DNA of 64,000 nucleotides from an uncultured Actinomycetota bacterium (GCA_963767885.1 CAVYFW010000003.1:218628-282627); one strand, 5' to 3'. Positions 1,499 through 39,443 are shown, counted from the stretch's first letter. The notes: generated from the sequence alone by a model not told the origin. Numbers and translations are program-made.

Positions 1499-2150
1499 TC
1501 AGCTCCCGGCCCGCAGGTACGCCAGCACCGCCAGCACGCGGCGGTGGTCGTCGGTCGACTGCTCGAGCCCGAGCTTGCGGAAGATCTGCCCCACGTTCGC
1601 CTCGACGGTCTTCGGGCTCAGGTAGAGAGCGCGGCAGATCGCGGCGTTGCTGCGCCCCTCGGCGAGCAGGGCGAGCACCTCGCGCTCGCGCTCCGTGAGC
1701 TCGTCCAGCGGACCCGCCTGCCGCGCGCGCTTGCACGAGCCGCGAGACGATCGTCGGGTCGATCACGCACTCGCCCTCGTGGATGCGGCGCAGGGCGTCC
1801 GCGATCACCGCGACGTCCGACACGCGGTCCTTCAGCAGGTAGCCGACCCGCTCCGGCGCCTCCTCCAGCAGGCGCGTCGCGTAGCGCGACTCCAGGTACT
1901 GCGAGAGCACGAGCACGCCGACGGTCGGGTACGCGGCGCGGATCGCCTGTGCCGCCGCCAGGCCCTCGTCGGTGTGCGTCGGCGGCATCTTGATGTCGAC
2001 GATGGCGACATCCGGGCGGCGCAGCTCGACCCGCCGCAGCAGGCCCTCGGCGTCCTCGGCCGTTCCCACCACCTCGAAGCCCGCCTCGACGAGCAGACGG
2101 GCCAGGCCCTCGCGCACCAGCACCGAGTCGTCGGCGATCACGAGCCGCAC
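1499..2150 (-). pseudogene. NarL/LuxR-family response regulator (REC + LuxR HTH), one frameshift near 1725
   Basis: The receiver (VRLVIADDSVLVREG..PDVAIVDIKMP..VLVLSQY..YLLKD) is in the frame of ORF 1482..3857. The HTH (LTEREREVLALLAEGRSNAAICRALYLSPKTVEANVGQIFRKLGL..AYLRAGS, stop at 1499-1501) is in another frame. The GTG start at 2150 (or 2141) overlaps the kinase stop at 2138-2140. Confidence 0.85.
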
Positions 2151-3857
2151 GGGATCTCCGCGCGGATCGTGACGGCGCCGCCCGCCGCACGGGCCACCGC
2201 CAGCGACCCGTCGAGCGCCAGGATGCGATCCTCCAGGTCGAGCAGGCCGTCGGGCTCCGCGGCTGCCTCCACCTCGACGACCAGCACGCCGTCGCGCTGC
2301 GCGGCCGTCACCTTCGCCGGCCCGGCCCGCGACGCCGCCGCGACGACGAGGTACGCCGCCGTCTCGGCAGCCGGCGGGAAGCGGCCCTCCGGGGCGCCGA
2401 GGATGCGGAGCGGGGTCGACGCGCCCTCCGACAGCGACTCGAACGCCGCCGCCGCGCCCTCGTCGGTCAGCACCGCGGGGTGGATGCCGTGCGCGAGCTC
2501 GCGCAGCTCGTCGACCGCCAGGCGGAGCTCGGCCTCCGCCGCCGCGAGCCGCGCCACCGCCTCGGGGTCGGCGTCGCCGAGGCGCCCCCGCAGCAGCCGG
2601 AGGGCCAGCGCGAGCGAGACGAGCCGCTGCTGGGCGCCGTCGTGGAGGTCGCGCTCCAGGCGCCGGCGCTCGGCGTCGCCGGCCTCGACGATGCGCGCGC
2701 GCGACGAGCGCAGCTCCGCGAGCTGCGCGCGCGCCTGCGCCTGCAGCCGCTCGTGCTCCAGCGCCAGGCCCGCGGCCGCGGCCACGTCCTGGACGCGCTC
2801 GGCGCGATCGGCCAGGCCGGGGTCGTGGAGCAGGACGGCGACCGTGCGGCCGTCCCGGACGAACGGCGTCGCCACCCGGTCGGGCCGCGCGTCGAGCACG
2901 ACGGGGCTGCCATCGGCCGCCGCGAAGCGGCCGTCGCCGACGGGGTACGCGACCTCGATGTCGGGTTCGCCGAGCGCGTCCGCGAGCCCGCGTCGCAGCC
3001 CGCCGGCGGACGCGGGGCCGCCCAGCTGCACGACCAGGCCCGCGACGCGGCGGCGCGTGTGCCGCGACTCCAGCAGGCCCCAGCCGACCGCCAGGCCGAG
3101 CCCCGACAGGGCCGCTGCCTGGCCGAGCCACAGCCGGCGCTCCAGCTCGCCGTTGCCGACGAACGCCTGGTCGAGGTTGGCGGCGAACGTCCACGCGACC
3201 AGCGCGAGGTAGGCACAGCCAGTCAGGACCACGGGGCCGACGACCCGGCGCCGGCCGGGGCGCGAGCGCGCGAGCCGCCACGCGGCGACGCCGGCGAGCA
3301 GGACGGCCGAGGCGAGCCCGAGCCACATCCCCGGCCCGGCCCAGCCGGTCGACGAGGTCCGCGTCGCCGTGCACCAGCAGCAGGTTGTCGGGGCACTGGC
3401 TGCACCCCTGAGCGGCCGGGTCGTACGCCAGCGCGGGCAGCACGCCGAGCACGAGCAGCCCGGTCGCGAGCGCCACGGCGACGGCCGCCCGCTCGAGCGG
3501 TGCGTGCAGCCTGCCGTCCGGGTACGCCAGCAGCGCCCAGCCGGCGAGCGCGGGGCACACGGCGCCGAGCGCGAGCCCGATCGTGAACACGACCGGCGAC
3601 CCGACTCCCGGGTTGTCCCACTCGGCGACGAACCAGGCGGCGCCGGTGAGCGCGAGCAGCGGCCCGACGGCGTTGCCGGGACGGCGCAGCGCGAACGCCG
3701 CGCCGCTCGCGATCAGGGCCCAGCCGGCGACGCAGAGCGCGAGGGAGGCGGCGAACGACCCACCCGCCGGCGAGTACGCGGGCGTCGCGCGGGCGACCGC
3801 GAGCGAGTACCCACCGAGCACGAGCCCGACCGCCGCGAGCGGGATCGTCAGCCGCAT
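2138..3857 (-). pseudogene. Membrane sensor histidine kinase, HisKA_3 family (HK1): H-box present, HATPase motifs degenerate; one frameshift near 3330-3350
   Basis: The N-terminal multi-pass sensor (MRLTIPLAAVGLVLGG.. from ATG 3857) is in the frame of ORF 1482..3857. The cytoplasmic part is ORF 2138..3328 with H-box ERDLHDGAQQRL. The C-terminal domain lacks the N, G1 and G2 boxes (YLVVAAASRAGPAKV..VEVEAAAEPDGLLDLEDRI). Confidence 0.85.
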
Positions 3858-3907
3858 GTGGCCATCGTCTCATACGGCACGCGTCCCGCCGCGGTGCTGC
3901 CCTTGCA

Positions 3908-3925
3908 CCGGACCAGGGCTAGCCC
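3908..3925. promoter_or_regulatory. Shared 18-nt motif CCGGACCAGGGCTAGCCC (palindromic core GGGCTAGCCC) in the HK1 / DctP-like divergent intergenic region
   Basis: Its reverse complement matches 17 of 18 nt with 7928..7945, upstream of the second two-component module. A second shared 10-mer, TGTGGAGCCG, lies at 3961..3970 (its complement is at 7918..7927). Confidence 0.35.
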
Positions 3926-4016
3926 CATGCTTGGCGGCAGCTGTCGAGGGGGCGCCCCGATGTGGAGCCGGAGCACCGGGCCTAGCGTCGAGGCGACCCA
4001 CGACAGGAGGTGCCCG

Positions 4017-5901
4017 ATGCAGTCCAGAAGCGTTCTCCGTCTCGCGGCGGCGACGGTCATGACCAGCCTCGTCCTCAGCTCGGCCGGCTGCGGCGACGCC
4101 ACGAGCGGGAGCGGCGACAAGGCCGGCGGCGAGGATCCGGCGCAGCCGCGCGTCCTCACGCTGGCCAGCCAGACCGGCATCCCAACGCAGATCGAGGCGT
4201 TCGCGAGGGAGGTCCAGAAGCGCTCCAACGGAACCCTCACGATCCGCTTCGAGGACGGCTGGCGCCACGGCGAGAACGGCTACGAGCAGGCCGTGCTCGA
4301 CGACCTCAAGGCAGGCAAGGTCGATCTGGCGTGGGTCGGCGCGCGCGCGTTCGACATGGTCGGCGCCGACGACTTCCAGGCACTGCTCGCCCCGCTCCTC
4401 GTCGATAGCTACGACCTCGAGGGGCGTGTCTTCGCCGCCGGCATCCCCGCGCGGATGCTGGCGGGCGTCGACGTCCCCGGCGTCGTCGGGCTCGGCGTGC
4501 TGCCCGGCCCGATGCGCAAGGTGCTCGGCGTCTCCGAACCGGTCGTAGGCCCCGACGACTTCGCGGGCCGGGTCGTCGGCCTCTCGGACGGCGGCGTGGC
4601 GCGGCAGACGCTGGAAGCGCTCGGTGCGACACCGAGGCCGCTGCCGGCGGAGGCGAAGCTCGACGGGCTCGACGCGTTCGAGCAGCAGATCTCGTCGATC
4701 GCCGGCAACTCGTACGACCAGGGCGCCACCGCGGTCACCGCCAACCTCAACATGTGGCCGCGTCCGCTCGTGCTCGTGACCGGCAAGGATCTGCTCGCGT
4801 CGCTCTCGCCGGACGCAGCAGGCCGCGCTCCGCGACGCGGGCGCGGCGACCGTGGACGAGGCGCTCGCGCTCACGAAGGCCGACGAGGCCGAGTCGGCTG
4901 CGATCCTCTGTCGGCGCGGGCTCACCTTCGCGACGGCGTCGGCCGGTGACCTCGCGGCGCTGCGCACCGCGGTCGAGCCGGTGTACGCGAGCCTCTCGGC
5001 CGACCCGGCGACGAAGGCCTACCTGGACGAGATCGCTGCGCTGAAGCAGCAGGTCGCCGCAGGCGCCGACGCGTCCCCGTGCGACGCCTCGTCCTCGACG
5101 GCGGCCGCGGCGACGATCCCGGACGGCCGCGACTCGTCGAAGGACGCGACGATCGACGGCGTCTACCGCACGACCATCAGCCGCGAGGAGCTCGAGTCGA
5201 CGCCCCTGCTGCTCGCCGCCGACGAGGTCAACGACATGAACTGGGGCGACATGACCTTGACGCTCGCCGACGGGCGCGCGACCTGGGAGCAGGCGAACGA
5301 CCTCGCGCACTTCTCGACCTCGGGCACCTACGAGGTCGACGGCGATGCGATCAGGCTCGCGTTCAGCGAGGGCGAGGTGGCCGGCGAGCAGTTCGCCGCC
5401 CACTGGAGCCTGTACCACGACACGCTCACGTTCACCCGCGACGACGAGCTCGGCGTCCTCCCAACGCCGTTCCTGCTGGAGCCGTGGCAGCGCAGCGACG
5501 CGCTGGCGGACGACTCGGACGCCGCGGTCGCCGCGCCAACGCCGATCGACGGCACGTGGGAGTACACGACGACCAAGGCGGACTTCCCCGACGAGCCGAA
5601 CATCGACGAGGAGAACTACGGCTTCTACCGCTTCGTGCTGGACGGCGGCCACTTCGAGATGACGCAGAAGAACGGCCCGTCCGACCGCTGGACGCGGGGC
5701 AGCTACACGGTCACCGGCGACACCGTCGAGTTCGAGGTCGAGGACTACGGCGGCGACGCGCCCAACGGCGCGATCGAGAAGACCGGCGAGCTCTTCGCGT
5801 TCGCGTGGAGCCTCTACCGCGACACGCTCACGATGGGGCCGGTGCCGGGCGCCATCTCGCCCGAGAACTTCACGGCGAAGCCGTGGACTCGGGTCGAGTA
5901 G
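4017..5901 (+). pseudogene. Lipoprotein: TRAP-type (DctP-like) solute-binding domain fused to a tandemly duplicated C-terminal domain; one frameshift near 4812
   Basis: RBS ACAGGAGG precedes ATG 4017, and there is a lipobox LVLSSAGC. The DctP-like body (LTIRFEDGW..LKAGKVDLAWVGARAF..GLGVLPGPMRK..FAGRVVGL) is in ORF 3369..4949 and continues in ORF 4852..5901. The C-terminal region has two similar modules ending WSLYHDTLTF and WSLYRDTLTM. Confidence 0.75.
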
Positions 5902-5948
5902 CCGCGGCCGCGTGGTAGCACGGTAGGGGGCGGCCGGCGCGCCGCCCC

Positions 5949-7530
5949 CTACGGCTGCCCGGACGCCGGGATGCGCGCCTCGAGCTCGGTGCCGCCCGCC
6001 CCGGCGGCACGCACGGCGAGGCGGCCGCCCAGCGCCTCGACCCGGTCGGCGAGCCCCCGCAGCCCCGAGCCCGACGGGTCGGCGCCGCCCCGGCCGTCGT
6101 CCGTGACGGTCACGACCACGTCGCCGTCGACCACCTCCACGAGCACGCTCGCGCGGGTCGCGCCGGCGTGCTTGGCGACGTTCGCGAGCGCCTCCGAGCA
6201 GACGAAGTACGCGGCGGCCTCCACCGCGGGCGTCTGGCGTTCGACGGCGACGTCGAGCTGGACGGGCACCGCGGATCGCGCGGCCAGCTCGGGCAGCGCC
6301 GCGGCCAGCCCGCCGTCGGCCAGCGCGCGCGGCCGGATGCCCTGCGCGAAGTCGCGCAGCTCCCCGCGGGCGCCGCGCAGCTCGTCCTCGACGGCCGCGA
6401 ACAGCGGATCCGAGGGGCCGTCCACCCCCTCGTGGGCCGTTGCGACGAGCTCCTCCACGCGGGCCAGGCGCCGCTCCGCGCCGTTGCGGAGCTCGCGCTC
6501 GATGCGCCGCCGCTGGGCATCGCCGGCCTCGACGATGCGGCGGCGCGAGGCGGCGAGCTCGAGCACGCGCTCGCGCACGTCCGCCTGCAGCCGCGCGTTG
6601 GAGAGCGCGAGCCGCGCCGCGGCGGCGACCGACTCGATCAGCGCCGGGTCGGCCAGGACCGCCTCGTCGTGGACCAGCACCGCGATCGGCACGCCGTCCT
6701 CGGCGAGCCGGGTGACGGCCCGGCCGGCGCCCGGCTCGGGGATCTCGACCGGGCGCCCGGCATCGTCGACGTACCGCTCCTCGCCGGGCAGGCGGTAGCC
6801 GACGACGAGCGAGCGATCGCCGAGCGCGCGGCCCAGCTCGTCCTGCAGGGTGCGCGTGTCGGAGCGCTTGCCGAGGTCGATGACGAGGCCGGCGACCACC
6901 GCCTCCGACCACCGCCCGCGCAGCAGGTCGACGCAGAGCACGACGGCCAGCGCCGGCGATGACGGCGTCGTACGTCCACAGCACGCCGCGGTCGGCGCCC
7001 CAGCCCGCGAGGCGGTCGACGGCGCCCAGCGCCAGCACCCCCGCGTACGCGAGGGCCGCTGCCAGCGCGGGCACGCCCGCCCGGCGCGCGGGTCCCGACG
7101 CGCGTGCGTACCCCTCGATCGCGGCGGCGGCGACCAGTGCGGCGAGCGCGAGCGTCAGCGCGTCGTCGCGGGCGAACGGCTCGACGATCGCATCGACGTA
7201 CGCGAGCACCACGGTGGCGAGGGCCAGGCGGCGCAGCAGGCGCCCGGTCGGGTACGAGATGTGCACGTGGACGAGCGGCCCGCGGTGCAGGTAGAGCGCC
7301 GCGGGCCAGAAGTTGCCCGCGAACCAGGTGAAGCCGGCGAGCGCCATCAGCGCGCCGATGCGGCTCTCGGGCCGTCGCTGCCACGCGACGACGCCGCAGG
7401 TCACCAGCACGCAGCCCACGACGCCGTCGGCGATGAGCAGCGGGAGGTCGCCGCCGTGGTACGACCTCCACTCGGCCGCGACGGCGACCGCGACGGCCAG
7501 CGGCACGAGCGCGAGTCGCAGCGCGCGCAC
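5949..7530 (-). pseudogene. Membrane sensor kinase paralogue, HisKA_3 family (HK2): intact HATPase motifs but H-box His-Asp replaced by Arg-Asn; one frameshift near 6942-6960
   Basis: The N-terminal membrane part starts at ATG 7530 (MRALRLALVPLAVAV.., ORF 4747..7530). The cytoplasmic part is ORF 5949..6941. The H-box position reads ERELRNGAERRL. N box SEALANVAKHA, G1 TDDGRGG and G2 GSGLRGLADR are all present. Confidence 0.85.
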
Positions 7531-7533
7531 GCG

Positions 7534-7890
7534 CTACCGGGGGGCGAGCGCGGCGAGCGCGGCCCCGCTGAGCTCGCTCTTGGGGATGAAGCCCCGCGCG
7601 AGGCTGCGCTGCAGCCGCCGGCGGTAGGACGCCGGGTCGCGGCTCGACGTCAGCACCACCGAGGGCCCGCCGGCGCCGCCGGTGAGCGCGTCGCACACGG
7701 CGAAGCCGTCCATGTCGGGGAGGGCGACGTCGAGCAGCACGAGCTCCGGCCCCAGCCGCGCCGCCTCGGCGATCGCGGACGCGCCGTCGTGCGCTTCGCC
7801 GACGACCTCGAATCCCTCGGCCTCGAGCAGCGCACGGGCGAAGGACCGGAACCCGGCGTGGTCGTCGACGATCAGGACGGTCGCCGCCAC
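7534..7890 (-). CDS. Stand-alone receiver (CheY-like) response regulator, 118 aa
   Basis: GTG start at 7890. Receiver signature: VLIVDDH, LVLLDVALPDMDG, VVLTSS, FIPK. No output domain. It ends 4 nt before the HK2 start. Confidence 0.85.
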   Translation of the reverse strand: MAATVLIVDDHAGFRSFARALLEAEGFEVVGEAHDGASAIAEAARLGPELVLLDVALPDMDGFAVCDALTGGAGGPSVVLTSSRDPASYRRRLQRSLARGFIPKSELSGAALAALAPR

Positions 7891-7927
7891 ACGGTGATCG
7901 TGGCAGGCGGCGGGGCGCGGCTCCACA

Positions 7928-7945
7928 GGGCTAGCCCTGGACCGG
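7928..7945. promoter_or_regulatory. Second copy of the shared motif (GGGCTAGCCCTGGACCGG) inside the 14-nt perfect palindrome CAGGGCTAGCCCTG
   Basis: Lies about 40 nt upstream of the receiver gene start (7890), in the intergenic region divergent from the secreted-protein gene at 8049. Confidence 0.35.
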
Positions 7946-8048
7946 CGGGAGCGGCGCACGGACCCTGCACAGCGCTTCCACACCGGGTCGCCGCACCCTC
8001 CTCGTACGGCGCTGGCAGGGAGCCGGCGCACCGACCAAGGAGTGGGGA

Positions 8049-8654
8049 ATGTCCGACACGGCCACCACCACCAGCGTTCGCGCCGCACGCCTCCGGCGCT
8101 CGTCCGCCGGCCGCCTCCTGCGGCGCGTGGCGCTCCCGGCGCTGCTCGCCACGGCCGCCCTCGTCGCGGCGGCGCCCGCCGGGGCCGTCACGACCACGGT
8201 GTCCAAGGGCGTCCCCGGCAAGGCCGCCAGGCCGCCGGTCTACGGCACGTACGGCGCCAACGGCGACTCCGTCATCACCGTGCCCTGGCGCCGCGTGACC
8301 GAGTCCCGGCGGTACGCCCGCTACGACCAGTGGGTCTGCGTCACGCCGCGCCTGTACCACGCCTACACGCCGGACTGGGGCACGCCGGACTGGGTCCTGG
8401 ACTCGAAGTCGACCAGCTGCGCGTGGATCGCGGCGGGCGCGAGGTACGCCGACATCGACGGCGTCGACTTCACCGGCCCTGTCGGCCTGTTCGGCTACGG
8501 CGTGGACGTCGTCGTGACGTGGTCGCTGAGCAACGGCAGGGTCATCGGCAAGCGCGTCTACGACTACGACCTCCAGAGCGACTACGTGTGCCAGAACGGC
8601 GGCTGCTACACGGGCGACGGCGTCCTCGGCGGGTTCGTCATGATGGACTTCTAG
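8049..8654 (+). CDS. Secreted hypothetical protein, 201 aa, four Cys
   Basis: RBS AAGGAG precedes the ATG. Arg-rich n-region plus hydrophobic signal (RLLRRVALPALLATAALVAAAPAGA). Intact, with a non-repetitive mature sequence. I recognise no family. Confidence 0.7.
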   Translation: MSDTATTTSVRAARLRRSSAGRLLRRVALPALLATAALVAAAPAGAVTTTVSKGVPGKAARPPVYGTYGANGDSVITVPWRRVTESRRYARYDQWVCVTPRLYHAYTPDWGTPDWVLDSKSTSCAWIAAGARYADIDGVDFTGPVGLFGYGVDVVVTWSLSNGRVIGKRVYDYDLQSDYVCQNGGCYTGDGVLGGFVMMDF

Positions 8655-8838: not shown

Positions 8839-11800
8839 ATGCGCCTGGCTGCTCTCACCACCGCCCTGCTCGCGTCGCTCCTCGCCCTCGCCGGCACGGC
8901 GGGCGCGGCCACGTTCACCGTGAACTCCACCGGGACGGCCGACGACGCAGCGCCCGGCAACGGCGAGTGCCGCACCGCCGGCGGCGTCTGCACGCTGCGC
9001 GCGGCGGTGCGCGAGGCCGACGCGGGCGCCGGCAGCGACCGCGTGGTCGTCCCGGCCGGCACGTACACGCTGGCCGCGGGGCTGCAGGTGCACTTCCCGC
9101 TCATCCTCGAGGGCGCGGGCGCGAGCTCGACCGCGATCGACGGCGCCGGGGAGATCGTCCTGCGCCTGCTCGAGGGCGCGACGACGGTGCGGGGCGTGAC
9201 GGTGCGCGGGGGCGAGGCCCAGGGCGGCGCCGGGCTGCTCGTGGAGAGCGGCGCGACGCTGACGCTGGAGGACGCCGTCGTGACCGGCAACGACGCGTTC
9301 ACGGGCGGAGGCGGGATCTACGTCCAGGCCGGCGGCGCGGCCACGATCCGCCGCACGTCGATCAGCGGCAACCACGCCACGGGCGCGTTCGGCGGCGGCA
9401 TCTGGAACCAGGGCGAGCTCGACCTCGTCGACAGCGTGGTCGCCGACAACGAGGCCAACCGTGCCGGCGGCATCCGCAACGAGGGCGAGATGCGGCTGCG
9501 CAACGTCACCGTCAGCACCAACCGCGCGCTCTCCGACGAGGCCGGCGTCGGCGGCATCTCGCAGAACGGCTTCGCGTTCCTGAACAACGTCACGATCACC
9601 CTCAACCACGGCCGCGGCGACGTCGCGGCGTCCTTCCGCGGCGGCGGCCTCCAGACGTCGACCGGCGAGCTCACGGTGCTCCAGAACTCGGTCGTCGCGG
9701 GCAACGACGGCCACGGCGGGCCGGCGGACTGCGTCGGCCCCCTCAGCTCCGACAGCCGCTACGACCTGATCGGCGTCACCACCGCCTGCGGCCTGCCGGC
9801 CGTGACGACGACGTGGAAGCTCGGGGTCGACGCCCGGCTCGGGCCGCTCGCGAACAACGGCTCGTCCCTCCGGGGCCACCTGCCGCAGGCGACGAGCCCG
9901 CTCGTCAACGCGGGCGCGCCGTACACGCCCGGCGGTCCGGCGGCGGGCGCCTGCGAGGGCCGCGACCAGCGCGGCATCGTGCGCCTGCGCTGCGACATCG
10001 GCGCGCTCGAGCGCGAGGTGCCGGTGCCGGCGACCATCACCGTCACCTCGACGGTCGACCAGCCCGACGCGGTGCCCGGCGACGGTGACCTGCGCCACGG
10101 CCGGCGGCGCCTGCACGCTGCGGGCGGCGGTCCAGGAGGCCAACCGGCTGCCCGGCGCGCAGAACGTGGCGATCCCGACCGGCGGGTACGTCCTGTCCCT
10201 CGTCGGGTCCGAGGCCGGCCTCGACGCGGACGCCGCGGGCGACCTCGACGTGCGCGGCGAGCTCTCGCTGACCGGCGCGGGCGCGGCGGCGAGCGTCGTC
10301 GACGGCAACGCGCTCGGCCGCATCCTCGACGTCGAGGTCGGAGCCAGCCTGCGCGTCCAGGGCCTGACGCTGCACAACGGCCGCGATGCGGGCGGCGGCG
10401 CGATCCGCGCCACGAGCGCGCAGGTCACGCTCGAGCAGACGGTGCTGTCCGGCAACGTCGCCACCGGGCCGGGCGGCGCGGTGCTGATGAGCGGCCTGGA
10501 CGAGGTGCTGGTCGTGCTGGAGTCGACGTTCGAGGGCAACCGGACGACGGGCCTCGGCGGCAACGGCGGCGCGATCTCGGCCGGCGGCGACGTGACCGTC
10601 ACCGCGTCCGTCCTCGCCGCCAACCAGGCGGCAGGGTCCGGCGGCGCGCTCGCGGTCACCGGCAGCCTCCTGCTGGAGCGCTCGGCCGTGCGCGACAACC
10701 GCGCCGAGGGCGGCGTGCTCGGCAACGGCGGCGGCGTCAGCGCGACCCAGGCCGCGATCGCGGGCTCCACGCTCTCGGGCAACACCGCGTCCGCGCACGG
10801 CGGCGGCGCCTTCGTGGGCAGCGGCACGCTCGACGACTCGACCGTCTCGGGCAACGGGAGCGCCGACCGCGGCGGCGGCGTCTCGACGAACGGCACGCTC
10901 GCCCTGCGCCACGTCACGCTCGCCGGCAACACCGCGAGCGCAGGCGGCGCCGACCTCTTCGTCTTCGGCTCCGGCGCGTCGCTCTCGCTCGCCGACAGCA
11001 TCCTCGGCAGCGCTGGCGGCGCTGGCTGCGCGGGCGCGGCACCGGCGAGCGCGGGCGGCAACGTCGCCCTCGACGGCAGCTGCGCCCTGGCCGGTCCGAA
11101 CGACCGCCCGGGCGTCGACCCGCTGCTCGGCCCGCTGGCGGACAACGGCGGCGCCACCCTCACCCACCTGCCGCAGGCCGGCAGCCCGGCGATCGACAAC
11201 GGCCTCCAGCCGACGCCGGCGACCGACCAGCGCGGCGCGGCGCGCCCGCAGGGCCCGGCTGCCGACAGCGGCGCCGTGGAGGGCATCGTGGCCATCATGG
11301 GCACGCCGACCGGCGCGCCGACGGCGCTCCTGATCGGCGCCGACGCCGGGGCCACGGGCGCGGACGCCCGCGCGCTGGCCACCCTCCGCGCGCTCGGCCT
11401 GGAGGCGACCGGCATCGAGCCTGCCGCGGCCGCGACGGTCTCGCTGCAGGGCCTGCGCCTGATCGTCGTCTCGCGGACCGCGAAGCTGACGCCGGCGGTC
11501 GCCCGGCGCCTGGCCCGCGCCGGCGTCGGCATCGCGACGTGGTCGCCCGCGGCCGCCCGCCAGCTCGGCCTGGTGCGGGCGCGCGGCACGGCCGGGCTCG
11601 CACGCGGCCGCGCGCTGCGCATCACGGCCCGCGGCGTCGGGCTGCTCGGCGCGCGCGGCCGCGTGCAGCTCGTCGCGGCCAGCAAGCCCCGCATGGTCCT
11701 CGCCCGTCTGACGCCGGTCGCGACCGGTCGCGTGCAGGCGCGCGTCAACGTCCCCGGCCGGCCGGCGGCGCTCGTCACCTTCGGCAAGCGCGTCCGCCTC

Positions 11801-11920
11801 GCGGGCGGGCTGAAGGTGAACGCCCGCCGCGCGGCCCTCCCCTACGGCCCGGGCGGCGCGACGACCGCGCTGGGCCGCCAGCTCGTCGAGCGGGCGCTGA
11901 CGTGGGCGGCGGCGGGGTGA
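8839..11920 (+). pseudogene. Large secreted right-handed beta-helix protein with two CSLREA / choice-of-anchor-Q-like modules and a distinct C-terminal domain; one frameshift near 10083
   Basis: Signal peptide MRLAALTTALLASLLALAGTAGA. Module 1 has GNGECRTAGGVCTLRAAVREA..DQRGIVRLRCDIGALE (ORF 8839..). Module 2 has TCATAGGACTLRAAVQEAN..DQRGAARPQGPAADSGAVEG (ORF 10085..11920). There are many G-rich beta-helix turns. An extra g after GGCGACGGT breaks the frame. Confidence 0.8.
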
Positions 11921-38511: not shown

Positions 38512-39372
38512 TCACCCATAGGCCCTCAGCCGCAGCAGGGTGCGGTTCTCGATCTGCCGGACGCGCTCGCGGCTGACGCCGAGGGTGCCGGCCACCTCCG
38601 CGAGCGTCATCGGGTCCTCGCCGGTGAGGCCGAAGCGGCACTCGATCAGCCGGCGATCGCGCGGGGGCAGCGTGGCCAGCATGGTGCTCAGCTCCTCCGA
38701 GCCGACCTTGTCCACCACGGCCACGTCGGGCCGGTACTGCTCGTCGTCCCTGACGAAGTCACCCAGCACGTCATCCCCGTCGTCGCCCACCGGCGACTCC
38801 AGCGAGACCGGCTGCTGATCGACCCGGATGAGCTGCTCCACGCGCTGCGGCGTGAGCTCCATCGTCTCCGCGAGCTCATCGACCGTCGGCTCACGCTCGA
38901 GCTCCTGGGCCAGCCGGACACGCGTCTTGATCAGGCGGTTGACCTGATCGACGATGTGCACCGGTAGGCGGATGGTGCGGGCCTGATCGGCGAGCCCGCG
39001 CGAGACAGCCTGGCGAATCCACCAGCTGGCATAGGTCGAGAACTTGTAGCCCTTGCGCCAGTCGTACTTCTCGACCGCCCGCATGAGCCCGACGTTGCCC
39101 TCCTGGATCAGGTCCAGGAACAACATGCCGCGGCCCGTGTAGCGCTTGGCGATCGATACCACCAGGCGCAGGTTGGCCTCGATCAGCCGTTGGCGGGCCG
39201 CCTCATCGCCGGCCTCGATGGCCTTGGCGAGCGACACCTCCTCCGCCGCGGTGAGCAGCCGGACCCTGCGAGTCTCGCGCAGGTAGTCGGTGACCAGGTC
39301 GTGCTCGCGGTGGTGGACGTCGACGTTGACCGTCGCCACCTGCTCCTCCACCTGCTCCTCAACCAGCAGCAT
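38512..39372 (-). CDS. Group-2 (SigB/HrdX-like) sigma-70 family RNA polymerase sigma factor
   Basis: Regions 1.2-4 are present: [78 protein letters not shown]. Confidence 0.9.
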
Positions 39373-39443
39373 CAGGGCTGAACCCGGGTGCCGTGGGATG
39401 CGAGGCAGAGCACGTCGCAGACGGTACTTTTCTTGCAGTTCAT
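39372..39443 (-). other. Candidate 23-codon upstream ORF ([23 protein letters not shown]) whose stop overlaps the sigma-factor ATG
   Basis: The TGATG junction is at 39370-39374. The ORF has three Cys codons and sits in an unusually AT-rich leader (39373-39560). No obvious RBS. Confidence 0.2.

Follow-up and report, generated by a model that had tools for sequence, protein, structure and literature searches.

Do two neighbouring two-component modules in an uncultured Actinomycetota bacterium answer to one and the same regulator? The question is raised by a 64,000-nucleotide stretch of DNA (GCA_963767885.1, CAVYFW010000003.1:218628-282627; G+C content 73%), referred to below as the window, in which two intergenic regions share an 18-nucleotide motif with a palindromic core. 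The window carries two operons on the minus strand, HK1-RR1 and RR2-HK2, each with a gene for a histidine kinase (HK) and one for a response regulator (RR). Genes on the plus strand diverge from both, a DctP-like lipoprotein gene starting at 4017 and a gene for a secreted protein starting at 8049. An earlier note on this DNA had described this layout correctly, and had proposed that a single regulator, plausibly the LuxR-type protein encoded at 1499-2150 (RR1), controls both modules together with their divergent partners. We find that the centre of this proposal holds, in the form of a cis-regulatory site that is shared by the two modules and kept at a fixed distance in dozens of orthologous loci. 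The 8049 partner does not belong to what is shared.

A palindrome kept at fixed positions in orthologous promoters

The first copy of the 18-mer, CCGGACCAGGGCTAGCCC, lies at 3908-3925 on the plus strand and the second, CCGGTCCAGGGCTAGCCC, at 7928-7945 on the minus strand. As the earlier note had it, the two are reverse complements that differ at one of 18 positions, and the second copy is embedded in a perfect 14-nucleotide palindrome, CAGGGCTAGCCCTG, at 7926-7939. The 10-nucleotide core, GGGCTAGCCC, had not been noticed in the rest of the window, and an exact count bears this out: it occurs exactly twice in the 64 kb, against 0.07 occurrences expected, and none of 100 shuffled sequences contained it two or more times. 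Ungapped similarity between the two copies extends over 32 nucleotides at 78% (3894-3925 and 7928-7959), and global alignment of the two intergenic regions in both orientations revealed no homology outside the motif. A second shared word, the 10-mer TGTGGAGCCG, is exact at 3961-3970 on the plus strand and at 7918-7927 on the minus strand. When one mismatch is allowed it is found 7 times, with 8.2 expected, and because it is not enriched in this way it is meaningful only by its position beside the palindrome.

The two modules belong to a larger conserved arrangement. A protein search with the reconstructed HK2 returned a large family of proteins of 523-527 amino acids at 60-72% identity, with one at 95%, from soil metagenomes and from metagenome-assembled genomes (MAGs) labelled Acidimicrobiales, Gaiellaceae or Actinomycetota. 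A metagenome scan gave 80 further loci, and 82 related loci in all were compared by tblastn mapping. The five genes are syntenic in two of these loci (L027 and L028) and in dozens of loci from metagenomes, as a unit made up of RR2-HK2, HK1-RR1 and, on the opposite strand, the DctP-like gene; tblastn recovered the same gene order down to about 45% identity. The genes that flank the cluster differ from locus to locus, including L027, L028 and the window.

The palindrome upstream of RR2 is part of a promoter layout that recurs throughout this family. We aligned 55 RR2-upstream regions, and counts are given over the 54 orthologous loci. AGGG-N4-C[CA]C stands at the aligned place in 45 of them, in surroundings whose sequence diverges, and its dyad lies 42-44 nucleotides from the RR2 start codon in 47. 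Closer to the gene, the hexamer of a putative extended -10 element, TGn-NANNNT, ends 6-8 nucleotides before the start codon in 53 loci, and the distance from the palindrome to this hexamer is 24 nucleotides in 40 loci and 23-25 nucleotides in 48. Every locus of the main clade reads CAGGG-N4-CCCyGATGCG, about 15 variable nucleotides, TGC(G/C)ACGAT, 6-8 nucleotides and then GTG or ATG. So short a distance between the extended -10 and the start codon implies a leaderless RR2-HK2 mRNA, with a transcription start that we infer from these elements.

Conservation within the site is uneven. The arms and the GAT flank are kept, with information content peaking at CAGGG, CCC and GAT, whereas variation is found in the CTAG centre (CCAA, TTAA, ACAG, TATG, CTAC and others) and in the CCGGWCC flank. 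The 18-mer pointed out in the earlier note is therefore a real sequence match, but the unit that selection keeps is shorter, 12-16 nucleotides of the form AGGG-N4-CCCY(GAT).

The HK1/DctP intergenic region holds more than the one copy first recognised. We aligned 26 of these regions and give counts over the 25 orthologous ones. Site B, which corresponds to the first copy of the 18-mer, has GGG-N4-CCC at the aligned place in 21 of the 25, and in two more both arms are switched; its conserved block in the orthologues is CATGGGGCTAGCCCTCG. At a dyad-to-dyad distance of 32 nucleotides from it lies another palindrome, site A, whose block CACATCGGGGCGCTCCCTCGA is kept in nearly all of the orthologous regions, and the two are separated in the orthologues by about 20 nucleotides of variable sequence. 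Read on the DctP strand, site A in the orthologues gives AGGG-N4-CCCC-GATGTG, 24 nucleotides and TAGCGT, which is the geometry of the RR2 promoter. The orthologues also conserve TCGACGCTAcG, the -10 hexamer on the reverse strand, and CCTCC, the complement of a Shine-Dalgarno sequence, which in the window is AGGAGG at 4005-4010 ahead of the ATG at 4017. Judged by this arrangement, an activator of the DctP-like gene would bind at site A. The count of two sites in the earlier note was correct as far as it went, but there are three, and possibly four, serving three promoters that include the one of the DctP-like gene. The shared 10-mer is exact in both places, as had been claimed, although its copy at 3961-3970 goes with site A and not with the copy at 3908-3925; in both intergenic regions it is the -35 zone beside a palindrome.

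On the HK1 side, TGCGACGAT followed by 6-7 nucleotides and the HK1 ATG is conserved in the orthologous regions. In the window a -10-like element ends 6 nucleotides before this ATG, and such a position implies that the HK1-RR1 mRNA is leaderless as well. The possible fourth site, site C, lies between site B and this element. A block, CGCAAGGGC, is conserved there in the closer orthologues, and some loci carry a full site at the HK1 promoter, at -42.5 in L038 and at -40.5 and -37.5 in L046 and L050. With so variable a spacing, the assignment of site C is a weak one.

The case for a single regulator

We built a position weight matrix from RR2-promoter sites outside the window only. Applied to the 64 kb, it ranks highest the positions 7925-7940 (score 16.0), 3913-3928 (12.0), 3091-3106 (11.0, inside the HK1 gene) and 3945-3960 (10.5), so that the top four distinct sites all fall within the cluster, three being in one or other of the two intergenic regions. 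In other loci too, the strong matches are at these three promoters, where 2-3 sites often form an array with a spacing of about 32-45 nucleotides; places equivalent to site A score 11-14, and the extra strong sites lie inside or immediately beside the cluster. The best match outside the cluster in the window, TCAGGGCTGAACCCGG at 39372-39387, scores 9.7, which is below the chance maximum.

The sites also appear to have changed together. In the most divergent clade the palindrome keeps its place in the promoter, but AGGG..CCCT arms give way to GTGGC..GCCAC. These switched arms are found upstream of RR2 in five loci (L099, L101, L104, L105 and L107), and in two of them, L104 and L105, in the HK1/DctP intergenic region too, an apparent change of operator specificity. 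The central four nucleotides, which vary across the family, agree between site B and the RR2 site at 2.86 of 4 positions within genomes and at 1.94 between genomes, a difference reached in none of 20,000 permutations. The arm switch in both intergenic regions and the matching of centres within genomes point to concerted evolution of the sites, as would be expected if the same protein reads them.

Which protein this might be is suggested by the cluster itself. RR1 is the only DNA-binding protein conserved among the five genes, and, since no other travels with the motif, it is the natural candidate. The window copy has a Response_reg domain and a helix-turn-helix (HTH) that can be read across a frame break, and its orthologue in L027 matches PF00072 and PF00196. 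In NCBIfam, RR1 remains far short of all equivalog cut-offs (its best match, MadR, gives 123 against a cut-off of 300), which marks it as a generic NarL-family regulator. Its closest solved relatives in a PDB comparison, VraR, DevR/DosR and DesR, are all response regulators, and these bind inverted repeats as dimers. With its two symmetric half-sites, the AGGG-N4-CCCY inverted repeat would suit a dimeric HTH protein, and the sites stand in the predicted promoters of the regulator's own operon, HK1-RR1, of RR2-HK2 and of the DctP-like gene. It is likely that RR1 binds these palindromes.

We favour, at a probability of about two in three, the reading that the three sites are operators of one dimeric factor, most likely phosphorylated RR1 (RR1~P), acting as a class II activator. 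A dimer of RR1~P would bind the AGGG-N4-CCCY(GAT) sites. At the promoters of RR2-HK2 and of the DctP-like gene the dyad would lie at about -42.5, with the site 24 nucleotides upstream of the -10 and abutting a poor -35 zone. At the HK1-RR1 promoter, site B would be centred further out, at about -63.5, and a weak half-site would stand near -41. From there RR1~P would recruit RNA polymerase to promoters that have no usable -35, and the three transcription units, five genes in all, would be co-induced, giving positive feedback.

The -35 zones are indeed poor, reading TGTGGA or GATGCG. A scan of 3750-8150 for promoters and terminators of the E. coli type found no sigma-70 consensus promoter and no terminator-like site, although at 73% G+C such a scan is uninformative. 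A structured RNA was rejected as an explanation of the motif, with no Rfam match at E<=1 and folding z-scores of -0.44 to +0.59 relative to shuffled sequences. Activator-dependent promoters fit these results, since there is no Rfam family, no folding beyond that of shuffles and no consensus sigma-70 promoter. A promoter for an extracytoplasmic function (ECF) sigma factor was also considered for the DctP-like gene, where GGAGCC-N16-CGTC can be read, and was set aside: the blocks conserved in the orthologues fit a TGn-NANNNT or TAGCGT -10 together with the palindrome, and not a GGAAC/CGTC pair.

Several observations weigh against activation by RR1~P. Simulated 64-kb sequences have a mean maximum matrix score of 13 and about 1.2 matches of at least 12, so the score taken by itself is not significant, and it is position and conservation that carry the argument for a shared site. 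The permutation p-value is overstated, because the loci are phylogenetically related. The contigs with switched arms in both intergenic regions, L104 and L105, break off ahead of the RR1 HTH or within it, where a matching change in the regulator would be sought. The RR2 site of the window has no GAT, the most informative flank in the orthologues, and reads GTG there. The transcription starts rest on conserved -10-like hexamers, and a site that overlaps a -35 zone could equally serve repression.

The window itself raises a further point of this kind, since five consecutive genes have one frame break each, the four listed in Table 1 and one near 10000 in the gene at 8839-11920. If these breaks are real and not assembly errors, the five-gene system is inactive in the source organism. 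RR1, HK1, the lipoprotein and HK2 are otherwise full-length, stop-free and 60-80% identical to their orthologues, which may fit an indel-prone assembly better than gene decay.

Repression is the strongest of the alternatives and has to be taken seriously, although we regard it as unlikely. The palindromes would again be real operators, but RR1 or another binder would sit as a dimer over the -35 and block RNA polymerase, in a negative autoregulation. At two promoters the palindrome reaches up to or into the -35 zone, and the extended -10 (TGn) could give basal transcription that does not depend on a -35 and that needs a block. The other features of these promoters lean towards activation, although none of them is decisive: the arrays of 2-3 sites about 32 nucleotides apart upstream of the core promoter resemble activator arrays, class II activators, as at the lux box, typically have their dyad at about -42.5 together with a -35 that departs from the consensus, and most two-component systems autoregulate positively.

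Less probable still is that the palindromes are bound by a factor encoded elsewhere, for example a global regulator, and that RR1 has other targets. The link between RR1 and the motif is one that we infer, and the truncated contigs with switched arms leave room for such a factor. Its sites would, however, be expected outside the cluster, and the 64-kb window holds no further strong ones, while in other loci the extra strong sites keep to the cluster or its immediate borders. The five genes have no other conserved regulator beside them, their neighbours being different in L027, L028 and the window.

The two copies of the motif might also resemble each other through sequence history and bind nothing. 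A recent duplication or gene conversion may have involved the paralogous promoters, or the likeness may be a chance product of GC-rich DNA. In favour of this, HK1 is a paralogue of HK2, and the match in the window (18 plus 10 nucleotides) is longer than what the orthologues conserve. The RR2 promoter (7918-7945) moreover resembles a fusion of two parts of 3908-3970, the left flank of site B and the right flank of site A, with about 34 intervening nucleotides missing. This suggests a local homogenisation in the lineage of the window, by loss between directly repeated palindromes or by gene conversion between the two promoters, and such an event would explain why the RR2 site of the window has no conserved GAT flank. 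Homogenisation probably explains no more than why the match is longer in this lineage. A history without function would not explain the concerted arm switch in both intergenic regions, nor why AGGG-N4-CCCY is kept at a fixed distance from the start codon between loci whose proteins are only 45-70% identical and whose flanks diverge. The footprint already largely refutes this explanation, and we consider it very improbable.

A chance origin was also weighed against the wider databases. The 18-mer query, CCGGWCCAGGGCTAGCCC, was run against 596 Gb of species-representative genomes, among which the source genome is not included. It was found at 26 loci, by chance or in unrelated contexts, and is thus not rare at database scale; none of the 26 showed homology to the window locus. 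Twelve of them belong together as a single conserved but unrelated sequence family, in MAGs of uncultured (MFD) Actinomycetota and of Mycobacterium, and the remainder are scattered singletons, about the chance number estimated by hand for GC-rich DNA. With two core copies in 64 kb and no locus-homologous match in the 596 Gb, the motif does not look like a genome-wide repeat such as a miniature inverted-repeat transposable element (MITE) or a repetitive extragenic palindromic (REP) sequence. A literature search with the core sequence matched only unrelated eukaryotic or vector sequences.

The unrelated family consists of a highly conserved stretch of at least about 108 nucleotides (GTCGACCGCCGAGACGAACC...CCGGACCAGGGCTAGCCCACCGTCCACC...) in many Actinomycetota and Mycobacterium MAGs (L004-L006, L009, L012, L013, L016, L017, L019, L024 and L026), and it occurs twice on one 1-Mb contig (L017 and L019). 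It may represent a mobile element or else a conserved gene.

That the palindrome works as a nucleic-acid hairpin, be it a terminator, an attenuator or an mRNA-stability element, is hardly credible, as the perfect 14-nucleotide palindrome at 7926-7939 would give a stem of only 4-5 base pairs with folding energies no better than those of shuffles, no terminator-like site or Rfam match accompanies it, the arm sequence is conserved in the main clade beyond what complementarity requires, and the putative leaderless mRNAs would begin downstream of the sites.

The genes of the cluster and its neighbourhood

Taking the palindromes as operators of RR1~P, we can ask what kind of system they would control. 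The genes and the elements of their promoters are collected in Table 1.

Table 1. Genes and predicted promoter elements of the cluster, with the adjacent 8049 gene, in window coordinates
Feature	Position	Strand	Description
RR1	1499-2150	-	NarL/LuxR-family response regulator with receiver and GerE-type HTH; one frame break at ~1731
HK1	2138-3857	-	Membrane HisKA_3 kinase paralogue; H-box DLHDGAQQ intact; one frame break at ~3330
HK1 extended -10-like element, TGA-GACGAT	3864-3872	-	6 nucleotides upstream of HK1 ATG 3857
Site C (tentative)	3892-3903	-	Conservation limited to the half-site TGCAAGGGC (plus strand, 3899-3907); dyad ~40.5 nucleotides before the HK1 ATG
Site B, AGGGCTAGCCCC	3915-3926	+	Dyad at 3920.5, 63.5 nucleotides upstream of HK1 ATG 3857; first copy of the earlier note
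Site A, AGGGGGCGCCCC	3947-3958	+	Followed by GA-TGTGGAGCCG (3959-3970); missed in the earlier note
DctP-like gene, -35 zone, TGTGGAGCCG	3961-3970	+	Family consensus GATGTGC
DctP-like gene, putative -10 hexamer, TAGCGT	3983-3988	+	Exactly 24 nucleotides after the site A palindrome
DctP-like lipoprotein	4017-5901	+	Solute-binding domain of the tripartite ATP-independent periplasmic (TRAP) type; one frame break at ~4808-4816
HK2	5949-7530	-	HK1 paralogue; ATP-binding domain intact; Arg at the acceptor position (ELRNG); frame break at ~6952
RR2	7534-7890	-	Stand-alone receiver, 118 amino acids; acidic pocket, Asp, Thr/Ser and Lys kept; no output domain
RR2 extended -10-like element, TGC-CACGAT	7897-7905	-	CACGAT at 7897-7902; 24 nucleotides past the palindrome, 6 nucleotides before GTG 7890
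RR2 -35 zone, TGTGGAGCCG	7918-7927	-	Adjoins the palindrome; family consensus GATGCGg, from which the window deviates
RR2 palindromic site, AGGGCTAGCCCT	7927-7938	-	Dyad at 7932.5, 42.5 nucleotides upstream of RR2 GTG 7890; second copy of the earlier note
8049 protein	8049-8654	+	Secreted, 201 amino acids; divergent from RR2

The two kinases are paralogues, 38% identical over 345 amino acids, and their defects are reciprocal. The HK1 orthologues keep LERDLHDGAQQ, with the H-box histidine, in 28 of 28, and in the same 28 the Asn of the ATP-binding N-box and the G1 and G2 motifs are absent; none of them gives a HATPase_c match in Pfam. HK2 shows the opposite. Across 94 proteins of its family the acceptor position is Arg in 80, His in 6, Ser in 4, Asn in 2 and Gly and Gln in one each, and the N, G1 and G2 motifs are kept in 93, 91 and 94 of the 94. 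The loss of the histidine is thus not universal, about 6% retaining it. With only the His in HK1 and usually only the ATP-binding part in HK2, the two probably work only together, which suggests an obligate split or heteromeric kinase, a conclusion drawn from motif conservation. Complementary kinase defects would also give the co-expression of the cluster a functional sense. One HK2 member is labelled merely 'ATP-binding protein' by NCBI, and the pair is a warning against annotating HK1-type and HK2-type proteins as independent kinases.

The DctP-like lipoprotein may have its role in sensing, as a co-sensor, and not in transport. No TRAP membrane subunits are encoded near its gene, and its C-terminal region is duplicated and has a lipocalin-like match in Pfam. 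In L027 the orthologue is a single gene of 598 amino acids. Within the C-terminal region of the window gene there is a direct repeat of 65 nucleotides, 75% identical (5366-5430 and 5768-5832).

The earlier note had also proposed four co-controlled units with the same architecture in both intergenic regions, and this is not conserved. None of the 82 related clusters has a homologue of the 8049 protein beside it, and the protein itself has no Pfam family and no exact record in the protein collection. The 8049 gene could at most be a lineage-specific target, with no conservation behind it. Beyond it, the gene at 8839-11920 encodes a large secreted protein with two C(T/S)LRAAV(R/Q)EA-type motifs (GVCTLRAAVREAD and GACTLRAAVQEAN), followed by long glycine- and alanine-rich, beta-helix-like repeats, with the frame change near 10000.

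Other lineages carry extra genes for secreted proteins of their own within or beside the cluster. These lie between DctP and HK1 in nine loci (L048, L049, L066, L069, L070, L075, L083, L084 and L089) and upstream of RR2 in three (L060, L083 and L092), and they encode a PD40/TolB-like beta-propeller, an SGNH-type hydrolase and small secreted proteins. Each of them is preceded by one to three high-scoring palindromes, and they are probably variable members of the regulon.

A wider interpretation, which we put forward tentatively and would not back at even odds, is that the shared operator ties together a previously undescribed and widely conserved 'five-component' sensor of uncultured soil Actinomycetota. 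HK1 would contribute the His and HK2 the ATP-binding domain, the lipoprotein would act as an extracytoplasmic co-sensor, RR2 as a phosphate sink or connector, and RR1 would close a positive feedback at three promoters, giving a switch-like response that includes the lineage-specific secreted proteins. Apart from this wider reading, the motif shows that the two seemingly separate two-component modules are one unit, and its conserved kinase pair with complementary defects is found in hundreds of soil metagenome contigs. If the lipoprotein is a true co-sensor, it may be a case of a solute-binding protein that has no transporter and was co-opted for sensing. The binding site and promoter geometry predicted here are testable, in a lineage that has no cultured or genetically tractable members.

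Comparison with known systems

The element is of a textbook type, an autoregulatory two-component operator, and the system that it would control is more unusual. The nearest parallel for the promoter layout is the lux box at the luxI promoter of Vibrio fischeri, a 20-nucleotide inverted repeat with its dyad at about -42.5, a weak -35 and dependence on an activator. The sites of the window are likewise inverted repeats suited to a dimer of the GerE/LuxR-type HTH, and at two promoters the dyad lies 42.5 nucleotides from the inferred start. LuxR, however, is an acyl-homoserine-lactone receptor, whereas RR1 is a response regulator controlled by phosphorylation, and the 20 nucleotides of the lux box are unrelated in sequence to the 12-16 nucleotides of AGGG-N4-CCCY-GAT, which here go with implied leaderless mRNAs.

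Closer in lineage is the DosR/DevR box of mycobacteria, recognised by a NarL-family regulator, a 20-nucleotide palindrome with GGGAC..GTCCC half-sites and a consensus of roughly TTSGGGACTWWAGTCCCSAA. It has in common with the present sites an actinobacterial NarL-family setting, inverted GGG...CCC arms, multiple sites and control of the regulator's own operon. We rejected it as an identity for the motif, since the GGG and CCC triplets are 8 nucleotides apart there and 4 here, the flanks differ, and RR1 is not a DevR equivalog.

For the kinases, the FasB/FasC/FasA system of group A Streptococcus offers a precedent. In it one of two membrane sensor-kinase-like paralogues, a pseudokinase whose own kinase domain is dispensable, provides the His and its partner the kinase domain, and FasB and FasC heterodimerise and feed one response regulator (PMC12675982). 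HK1 and HK2 show the same division of labour at the level of their sequences. FasB and FasC are ComE/LytTR-linked proteins of another phylum, whereas the present pair is of the HisKA_3/NarL type; and, unlike the Fas genes, HK1 and HK2 stand in separate operons with a shared predicted operator, accompanied by a receiver-only protein and a DctP-like lipoprotein.

A second precedent is CheA3/CheA4 of Rhodobacter sphaeroides, in which the phosphorylatable and the ATP-binding domains are on two proteins, neither of which autophosphorylates alone, and for which modelling predicts switch-like behaviour (PMC3591291). Kinase function would be divided between two proteins in HK1/HK2 too, as read from their motifs. 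The CheA proteins are chemotaxis kinases from which whole domains are missing, whereas HK1 and HK2 keep the full layout and have motifs that decayed reciprocally. If the two do depend on each other, they would be a natural obligate partnership of kinase and pseudokinase outside the few cases studied so far, CheA3/CheA4 and FasB/FasC.

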